Shown here: piece after piece, positions 55,305-59,836 of the stretch
How the letters are laid out: each line of letters starts with the position of its first letter
How positions within the stretch are numbered: position 1 is the first letter of the stretch
From: Candidatus Culexmicrobium cathedralense
GTDB taxonomy: Archaea > Thermoproteota > Methanomethylicia > Culexarchaeales > Culexmicrobiaceae
Direction of reading: 5' to 3'
Length of the DNA: 64,000 bases
Assembly: GCA_025061115.1 (NCBI GenBank)
Contig: JANZKC010000001.1
Span: 736,001-800,000 of the forward strand
Notes under the pieces: generated by a model
Database searches by the model: none
What the model was told of the DNA's origin: nothing
The model's input: only the letters and a program-made list of their open reading frames with translations
Made by a program: the position numbers and the translations under genes

Positions 55305-55437
55305 GAGTGCACCGCCAGCACGCCCCTTTCCCGGTGCCTCTCGGACACCAGTACTCAGGCGCGCGGCAGTGGGCTTGACTTCCGGGTTCGGAATGAGTCC
55401 GGGTATTTCCCCACTGCCTATGGCCGGCGGTGCACTC
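55305..55437 (-). rRNA. rrf: 5S rRNA (no 16S/23S in the window)
   Basis: Minus strand GGCCATAG...ACCCGGACTCATTCCGAACCCGGAAGTCAAGC...AGTACTG, with complementary termini; ends approximate. Confidence 0.95.
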
Positions 55438-55550: not shown

Positions 55551-55662
55551 GCCGGGGTCGCCTAGCCTGGTTAGGGCGCCGGACTCATAATCTAAGCGAT
55601 ATAGGGGACCAGACATAGGTGGAATCCGGTTTTCGCGGGTTCGAAGCCCGCCCCCGGCACCA
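55551..55662 (+). tRNA. Elongator tRNA-Met(CAT) with 34-nt anticodon-loop intron
   Basis: GCCGGGG/CCCCGGC acceptor, CCGGA-CTCATA...ATCCGG arm split by an insert at ~55590-55624, encoded CCA, TTATAAAA at 55521. Confidence 0.9.
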
Positions 55663-58678: not shown

Positions 58679-58885
58679 GGGCTCTGCCGCATACCACGCT
58701 AGACGGACCTAGGGGAGAAGGAGAATCCATCGATGACCCTTAGGGGTACCCAGGCGTGGGACAGGTAGAGCCCATTCATGGGGTGGGGAGCTAAGTCCCG
58801 CCGTCGAGAGTGCCCAAAGAGAGAGGCTTGCCCCCTCCCAATGAAATTGGGTGATCGCGTGCGGGGGACAGCTCCGCCACCCCAT
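58679..58885 (+). ncRNA. Two tandem H/ACA-like guide RNA hairpins
   Basis: Each unit has a lower stem, an open pocket and an upper stem capped by AGA/TGA (K-turn-like), with ACA at 58761 and 58868. G-U pairs favour the + strand; CTTTAATT lies about 25 bp upstream. Confidence 0.7.
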
Positions 58886-58987
58886 GCGCCCAATAATTCA
58901 GAAGAAAACAGCTTAGAACCTAAGAAGTTATTTATGTGAAAGCATAAACTGCTTTGAAAGAGCCTAAAATGGCGAAGATGCCAATAA

Positions 58988-59455: not shown

Positions 59456-59682
59456 AAGTTCACCACGCAGGAGCAGTACTGGTACTATTGTTAGATGAAG
59501 CGTTTTTAAATAGTTCTTTGTCAAAAAATTGCGTTAACTTCAACTGATAACTCAAGTTAACTTGAATTTTGAGGCGTTGCACTTATCCCGCCATATTCAC
59601 AGGCAAATTACGATTTAAAGGCTAGGTGAAGAAAAGCTTATCACCTGCTAGGGAAATTTTGGTACATGGGGCTGGCTGGGCT

Positions 59683-59836
59683 GGGACCCCCTTTAGGGGG
59701 CAGCATGCCGTAGCTCAGCAAGGTAGAGCGGCGGGCTCCAGAGCGCATAGGTAGAATTTGACCGGAAGGGATGATGTAGCTCTGGAGCGCGGGAGCAACC
59801 CGTTGGTCGTGGGTTCAAGTCCCACCGGCCCCACCA
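59683..59836 (+). tRNA. tRNA-Trp(CCA) with two introns (3/4: 59686-59706; 37/38: 59742-59797)
   Basis: Removing both introns gives a GGGGCCG/CGGCCCC acceptor, GCGGG-CTCCAGA-CCCGT anticodon arm and ACCA end; BHB-type pairing at both. Confidence 0.9.

Follow-up and report, generated by a model that had tools for sequence, protein, structure and literature searches.

Introduction

Introns with a bulge-helix-bulge (BHB) motif at tRNA position 3/4 have been described in the Thermoproteales, as summarized in a review (PMC4090602, citing Sugahara et al. 2008). BHB motifs built from leader or trailer sequence are known from the split and permuted tRNAs of Nanoarchaeum, Caldivirga, Thermofilum and Cyanidioschyzon, according to the accounts in PMC4090602, PMC4033280 and PMC3218864. 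Here we analyze the tRNA-Trp(CCA) gene at 59668-59836 (+ strand) of a 64,000-nucleotide (nt) stretch of contig JANZKC010000001.1 of Candidatus Culexmicrobium cathedralense, hereafter the window, whose positions serve as coordinates throughout. As read from its sequence, the gene has two introns. One of them very probably lies at position 3/4, with a strict BHB motif and a GGG/GCCG junction, and the leader ahead of it carries a spare 7-nt copy of the 5' acceptor strand.

The host, a hot-vent archaeon, belongs to the order Culexarchaeales of the class Methanomethylicia (Thermoproteota) and not to the Thermoproteales. As in the Thermoproteales tRNAs described in the review, a protein-spliced BHB intron would follow base 3 beside a canonical 37/38 intron. 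Unlike in those tRNAs, it is found here in the Culexarchaeales and in tRNA-Trp, and it is fixed across the whole order. The spare strand was seen in the present gene, the Thermoproteales cases being compared by the description in the review. The split and permuted tRNAs, in the accounts cited above, share with this gene a motif of which one side is formed by flanking non-tRNA sequence, and a splicing endonuclease that acts before trimming by RNase P or RNase Z. In contrast, the gene analyzed here would give one contiguous transcript with the exons in normal order, with five pairing bases supplied by the leader and with a look-alike of the acceptor strand.

An earlier note on the window had stated that acceptor-stem introns are reported mainly in the Thermoproteales, which agrees with the account in PMC4090602. 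The 3/4 intron type is already known, and the present occurrence in a new lineage extends this rare class from the Thermoproteales to another thermophilic lineage. The spare strand is more unusual than the 3/4 intron itself. Nowhere in the literature that we searched was a spare acceptor strand of this conserved kind described, a provisional result since the primary papers on 3/4 introns lay outside that search. In the accessible text of the paper on the Culexarchaeia (PMC9723716), the word 'intron' has 0 occurrences and tRNA appears only as tRNAscan-SE counts.

Results

Structure of the gene and of the 3/4 intron

The features of the gene are as follows.

59632-59643, + strand: promoter motif AAAAGCTTATCA, resembling a B recognition element (BRE) and TATA box; score 8.2, with equivalents in the orthologues
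59668-59674, + strand: spare copy GGGGCTG of the 5' acceptor strand, close to where the transcript is predicted to start; GGGGCYG in 14/14 parsed orthologues
59675-59682, + strand: remaining leader, comprising the spacer GCT, the outer-helix GG (59678-79) and the central-helix GCT (59680-82); from the sequence
59683-59685, + strand: exon 1, tRNA positions 1-3, GGG; from the BHB cut rule GGG/A
59686-59706, + strand: intron 1, 21 nt, at position 3/4, comprising the hairpin, the CAGC strand and the bulge bases AT; from orthologues and covariation
59707-59741, + strand: exon 2, positions 4-37, with GCCG, U8 A9, the D arm and the anticodon stem; from the Rfam match and the sequence
59738-40, + strand: anticodon CCA; from the sequence
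59742-59797, + strand: intron 2, 56 nt, at the canonical position 37/38; from the cut rule and the sequence
59798-59836, + strand: exon 3, positions 38-73, with the T arm, the 3' acceptor strand and A73; from the sequence and the Rfam match
59826-59832, + strand: 3' acceptor strand CGGCCCC, followed by A73 (59833) and an encoded CCA (59834-59836); from the sequence

The 3' acceptor strand CGGCCCC calls for GGGGCCG as its partner, and only GCCG (59707-59710) stands ahead of U8 A9 and the D-arm GCTC, exactly as the earlier note had pointed out. The BHB motif supplies the remaining bases. Its outer helix pairs GG 59678-79 with CC 59708-09, with a possible extra U59677.G59710, and its central helix of 4 base pairs (bp) joins GCTG 59680-83 to CAGC 59701-04. 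Two 3-nt bulges, GGA 59684-86 and ATG 59705-07, lie on opposite strands, and the inner hairpin CCCCC-TTTA-GGGGG (59687-59700) has a 5-bp helix. Each of the helices, the bulges and the hairpin that the note had listed is present in the sequence. If both bulges are cut behind their second base, at 59685/86 and 59706/07, then 59686-59706 is removed and GGG is joined to GCCG. The joined strand is the exact Watson-Crick complement of CGGCCCC and fully restores the acceptor stem, so the excision proposed earlier gives the product that was claimed for it. The 37/38 intron of the same gene follows the same cut rule (AG/A and CA/A).

G59683 doubles as the tRNA +1 and the last base of the central helix on its 5' side. 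With +1 at this position, the leader supplies three of the four bases on the 5' side of the central helix (59680-82), as had been claimed, and the entire 5' side of the outer helix. Since the 5' side of the motif is built from the leader, an endonuclease that requires the motif would have to act before RNase P removes the leader. The position of these 5'-side bases upstream of +1 thus supports the earlier proposal that splicing would precede RNase P cleavage. The leader is 15 nt long (59668-59682), mature +1 being G59683. All exons stand in normal order within 170 nt behind one promoter motif, and the gene is neither split nor permuted. From this arrangement we infer splicing at position 3/4 in vivo, and the order of the steps.

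Among the genes of the host are those for an archaeal RNase P RNA (173.9 bits), for the ligase RtcB (601 bits) and for two PF01974 splicing-endonuclease paralogues (110.7 and 81.6 bits, in open frames 188 and 180 amino acids long). The two paralogues (C1:462959-463216 and C2:433801-434061 of genome G000) are consistent with a two-subunit endonuclease as in Thermoproteota, with presumptive subunit roles. Together with the covariation described below, these genes argue for the assignment, made in the earlier note, of a tRNA-Trp with a putative BHB intron at position 3/4.

The locus is the host's single, functional tRNA-Trp(CCA) gene. ARAGORN missed it at default settings and, with introns allowed, found 45 tRNAs in the whole genome, of which 0 were tRNA-Trp. 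The Rfam tRNA model covers only model positions 4-67 of the gene (59707-59829, 39.3 bits), the one 5'-shortened match among 44 in the genome. The suggestion that standard finders may mis-annotate the gene was therefore borne out for ARAGORN and plain Rfam only; tRNAscan-SE 2.0, according to its published description (PMC8450103), already scans 60-nt flanks for such motifs. Because the intron interrupts the only tRNA-Trp gene, splicing should be essential and the processing order forced.

At a permissive Rfam threshold, the tmRNA model also matched the locus (23.6 bits against a cut-off of 47), a match caused by the tRNA-like ends, and HPnc0260 and Plastid-ycf2 gave sub-threshold matches; all three were rejected. 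The host genome is a metagenome bin of 25 contigs with 7.65% contamination. The DNA of the locus is identical across contigs from four public DNA runs, two of which are possibly source runs; a search for sequencing runs that contain the locus listed no RNA run.

Conservation of the module in the Culexarchaeales

The gene is present in 11 of the 12 Culexarchaeales genomes, and the twelfth genome is 74% complete. Genomes and metagenome contigs together yielded 15 distinct orthologous sequences, one of them ended by a contig edge, and the other 14 were parsed. A comparison of orthologous tRNA-Trp loci, which the earlier note had suggested as a check, recovered the same module in 14/14 parsed sequences, each with 4/4 central pairs and with 3/4 introns of 14-30 nt.

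Covariation was analyzed in an alignment of 12 distinct 5' modules. BHB cells were paired in 95.8% of cases, versus at most 56.8% with the partners slid, and the central helix was paired in 48/48 cells. Compensatory exchanges were observed at two central-helix pairs: pair 28/59 is CG in 8 sequences and UA in 4, and pair 29/58 is CG in 6 and UA in 6. The covariation score was reached by 0/500 shuffles; as the aligned sequences are related, the covariation figures overstate independence, and the compensatory changes are nonetheless clear. RNAalifold independently predicted the same central helix. In the relatives, pairing reached 91.7% in the outer helix and 91.3% in the first two pairs of the inner helix, with GG or AG kept ahead of the central helix and a weak inner helix in the introns of 14-17 nt. 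Across the orthologues the exons are nearly invariant and the introns variable, and the downstream GCCG is invariant.

The 3' CCA is encoded in the window gene and in 10/15 distinct sequences. In L008, L009, L011, L050 and L052 it is not encoded, and the acceptor strand is followed by ATTC, ATCA or ATCAG. Genes of the sister orders (L012-L030) carry, in addition to the canonical intron, an extra tRNA-Trp intron behind the D arm, at about position 28/29. Within one class, the second tRNA-Trp intron thus occupies differing sites.

A spare 5' acceptor strand in the leader

The sequence GGGGCTG at 59668-74 mimics the 5' acceptor strand over its whole length and can pair 7/7 with CGGCCCC, with one G.U. 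In 14/14 orthologues, GGGGCCG or GGGGCTG stands at the equivalent site, 3-7 variable bases ahead of the outer helix, and most relatives have GGGGCCG. Six of the seven columns of this 7-mer are invariant in the alignment and the seventh is C or T, with 0 invariant columns in the preceding 10-nt leader and in the spacer. The change from C to T occurs only in genomes G000 and G002 and keeps the pairing with G67. For none of the host's 43 other tRNA genes did the 40 nt upstream contain the gene's own acceptor strand, even with one mismatch allowed.

Several observations bear on which of the two strands enters the mature tRNA. In the sister orders, all seven acceptor pairs of tRNA-Trp are Watson-Crick in 19/19 genes, and pair 6:67 is C-G (12) or U-A (7). 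In the host, the upstream copy would give U6.G67 and the spliced GGGGCCG gives C-G, so C versus U at position 6 distinguishes the mature strand. Splice registers that take the upstream 7-mer as an exon (3/4 to 8/9) had four central pairs in only 3/84 register-by-locus cells, against 4/4 central pairs in 14/14 loci for the 3/4 register, and were rejected. Of the three exceptional cells, register 8/9 in L004 and L052 would lose U8, and the cell in L055 relies on three G.U pairs. A nested second BHB forming after the first splice, worked through by hand for one locus (L007), was likewise rejected. The register test, the Watson-Crick stems of the sister orders, and the invariance of GCCG against the drift of the 7-mer together favor the spliced strand as the mature strand. 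The 7-mer would then be a second acceptor 5' strand, kept in the leader and absent from the mature tRNA.

The promoter motif was learned from the host's 43 other tRNA genes, the best of which scores 8.5. The TATA-like element at 59632 in the earlier note corresponds to AAAAGCTTATCA, whose score comes close to that value and which precedes the spare 7-mer by 36 nt and the spliced +1 by 51 nt. In 11 Culexarchaeales loci the distance from promoter to 7-mer is 33-40 nt (median 36). The sister-order tRNA-Trp genes have an ordinary 5' end, and in 18 of their loci mature +1 follows the promoter at a distance of 35-42 nt, apart from a single locus at 54 nt. The 7-mer thus stands at the promoter-to-+1 distance of the sister orders, which suggests that it occupies the site of the ancestral 5' end and that the transcript starts at the 7-mer or just before it. 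In the window, transcription probably begins at, or just ahead of, 59668-74. The start near 59668 that the earlier note had proposed fits the promoter, although the note had overlooked the full 7-nt look-alike at that very site.

Folding models of the precursor

Pairing probabilities were taken from nearest-neighbour ensembles of full precursors. At 75 C, the 7-mer pairs with the 3' acceptor strand with a probability of 0.47-0.94, and the full-length minimum free energy (MFE) fold also pairs the 7-mer with the 3' end. With the 7-mer present, the probability of the BHB was 6- to 2300-fold above that with the 7-mer removed or replaced, in 14/14 sequences. When it was removed or replaced, the modelled probability of a premature acceptor stem rose. 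The 5' side of the BHB, GGGCYGGG, resembles the acceptor strand, so a free 3' strand would be expected to invade this arm.

A second tRNA gene with a spare strand

A pattern search for further cases in 401 Thermoproteota genomes gave 7 matches versus 7 for the reversed-pattern control, with no enrichment. One of the seven is a tRNA gene with a BHB intron at 9/10, L062/L068 (G111:C78), with an orthologue, L069 (G132:C169). The two species belong to another family, in a distant Thermoproteota genus. Here the outer and central BHB helices consume the entire 5' acceptor strand GGGCCCG. In both species an exact second GGGCCCG, which the search pattern did not require, stands 1 nt ahead of this strand, and a promoter-like motif lies 35 nt before it. 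From its sequence, this case may be an independent parallel to the spare strand of tRNA-Trp. At the contig end of G111, the sequence of the 3' acceptor strand is CGGGCAT, perhaps because of a further intron or an assembly break.

Discussion

The spare copy may serve as a surrogate strand, leaving the BHB free to form and holding back RNase P; we consider this reading about as likely as not. In the pathway that we propose, the promoter motif at 59632 would direct a transcript that begins at about 59666-59668, a precursor with two protein-spliced introns. The 21-nt intron would be presented to the enzyme as a strict helix-bulge-helix-bulge-helix, of which the 5' side would consist of leader bases -5 to -1 plus G1. 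On the surrogate reading, the spare copy would hold the free 3' acceptor strand for as long as the real 5' strand is divided by the intron and engaged in the BHB. This surrogate pairing would block invasion of the G-rich BHB arm by the 3' strand, would prevent a premature acceptor stem open to RNase P, and would lend the precursor a tRNA-like body. The splicing endonuclease would cleave each bulge after its second base and RtcB would ligate GGG to GCCG; a cut by RNase P between U59682 and G59683 would be possible only once the precursor is spliced. The contiguous strand would then replace the copy, and RNase P would remove the 15-nt leader.

More tentatively, and with slightly less confidence than in the surrogate role itself, we suggest that a leader-encoded spare strand may be a general, selected cis-acting folding device of archaeal tRNA genes with a BHB intron in or adjacent to the acceptor stem. 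By engaging the orphaned 3' strand, such a device would allow the splice motif to form, and it would hold off RNase P until the exons are joined, thereby setting splicing before trimming. If functional, the spare strand would be a simple example of a precursor that carries its own folding helper, and it would explain how an intron persists where end-processing and splicing enzymes compete for the same bases. Spare copies of this kind can also mislead finders and readers into setting the 5' end 15 nt ahead of its true position.

Several results weigh against these interpretations. Minimal BHB-like patterns are frequent by chance: the window has 1037 on the + strand and 1236 on the - strand versus 978-1078 in five shuffles, so that such a pattern by itself carries no signal above shuffles. 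The local MFE fold of 59660-59720 did not return the BHB, and its stability was like that of shuffles (z -0.70). With the bare pattern at the level of chance, the weight of the argument rests on the exact junction and on the orthologue comparison. As for the spare copy, the absolute probability of the BHB in the nearest-neighbour model is at most 0.012. Of 20-41 permuted 7-mers, 0-4 equalled the native order, and the native order was the single best in 3/11 loci, which indicates that the modelled effect of the 7-mer is only partly specific. After splicing in silico, the spare copy was still preferred on the 3' strand in 55/56 locus-by-condition cells, with probabilities of 0.33-1.00 versus 0.00-0.47 for the native stem, which came first only in L010 at 37 C with one intron out (0.47 vs 0.33). 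Since the model keeps the spare copy in place after splicing, the hand-over would have to come from tertiary folding or from irreversible cleavage by RNase P. Moreover, the 3' acceptor strand is invariant within the order, so its pairing with the spare copy is invisible to covariation.

The strongest alternative to a function is that the 7-mer is a neutral relic of a gene that once began at 59668, into which a cassette with a second, intron-split strand was inserted at 7/8. The promoter distance shared with the sister orders fits an ancestral exon at this site, and the folding models give a function only modest support. In contrast, six of the seven positions have stayed invariant across three families, in which the neighbouring leader and spacer lost their identity and the spacer came to vary between 3 and 7 nt. 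The sole change, C to T in G000 and G002, is one that retains the pairing with G67, and a similar spare copy recurs beside the acceptor-proximal intron at 9/10 in G111 and G132. We therefore consider a neutral relic unlikely.

Conservation of the 7-mer for another role is less probable still. It might extend the outer helix through GGGC:GCUC pairs with the D stem, serve as an initiator or leader element for RNA polymerase or RNase P, or provide an acceptor stem that lets 3' trimming and CCA addition go ahead of splicing. The first of these is close to the earlier proposal that leader GGGCTG can also pair with exon TAGCTC. With the 5' module alone, RNAalifold pairs positions 2-5 of the 7-mer with GCUC in 12/12 sequences, and the probability of GGGC:GCUC in the nascent 5' module is 0.02-0.30. 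However, in the full-length ensemble this probability is at most 8e-5, against 0.47-0.93 for the pairing with the 3' strand, and an extension of the outer helix via the D stem was rejected for the full-length RNA on this ground. The GGGC:GCUC pairs are invariant, which leaves no covariation, and they account for only four of the seven conserved positions; the pairing with TAGCTC as first proposed is not kept in the relatives with GGGGCCG. As regards 3' processing, the five of 15 sequences without an encoded CCA would need an acceptor stem for this step. A role of the 7-mer in that stem would be a variant of the surrogate function rather than a true rival to it.

We regard as very improbable that the upstream 7-mer is the real mature 5' strand, that the 36 nt at 59675-59710 are an insertion at 7/8 lost in some other way, and that the BHB is incidental. 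The 7-mer does pair 7/7 with the 3' strand at the usual promoter distance, it dominates the modelled ensembles, and the sub-threshold Rfam tmRNA model treats 59668-74 and the 3' end as an acceptor stem. Yet no BHB yields this product: two of the 3/84 cells described above lack U8 and one depends on three G.U pairs, and no second BHB was seen after removal of the 3/4 intron in L007, worked by hand. Its U6.G67 pair would be unlike 19/19 sister-order genes, and covariation of the 3/4 BHB would be unexpected for an incidental motif. That the locus is a decaying pseudogene, with a functional tRNA-Trp elsewhere or unassembled, is scarcely credible despite the low Rfam score (39.3 bits) and the contigs and contamination of the bin, because Rfam and ARAGORN found no other tRNA-Trp in the genome and the two-intron gene, with its exons intact and nearly invariant while its introns vary, is present in 11/12 genomes of the order.

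Other observations

Introns of tRNA-Trp in Euryarchaeota carry box C/D guides, and Singh et al. reportedly described in 2004 such a guide in the canonical tRNA-Trp intron of Haloferax. Intron 2 of the present gene looks like a reduced box C/D guide, as judged from its motifs. CTCC (positions 32-35) pairs with GGAG 59792-95, and GCTCTGGAG at 59779-87 is complementary over 9 nt to CTCCAGAGC at 59736-44 in the anticodon-loop region. The box C/D-like motifs are GGGATGA 59768-74 and TTGA 59758-61. These motifs and the 9-nt complement of the anticodon loop resemble features of the Haloferax and euryarchaeal introns. Unlike in those introns, clear terminal C and D boxes were not identified as a pair, and intron 2 had no Rfam match. 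By eye, and without a tally, GGGATGA, TTGA, a TGACC motif and the GCTCTGGAG stretch look kept across the class. In runs X1 and X2, contigs of other organisms match the tRNA-Trp exons, with a 22-nt sequence replacing the 56-nt canonical intron (59741/59798).

Elsewhere in the window, a 5S rRNA gene lies at 55310-55431 (- strand). A second intron-containing tRNA lies at 55551-55659 (+ strand), with 48.5 bits in Rfam and no match by ARAGORN at default settings. The GC-rich island at 58679-58890 stands between two genes and has no credible open frame and no Rfam match at E 0.1 or better. Its modelled fold is far more stable than that of shuffled sequences, with z scores of -5.67 for the + strand and -4.14 for the - strand, which makes it a candidate unannotated structured RNA.

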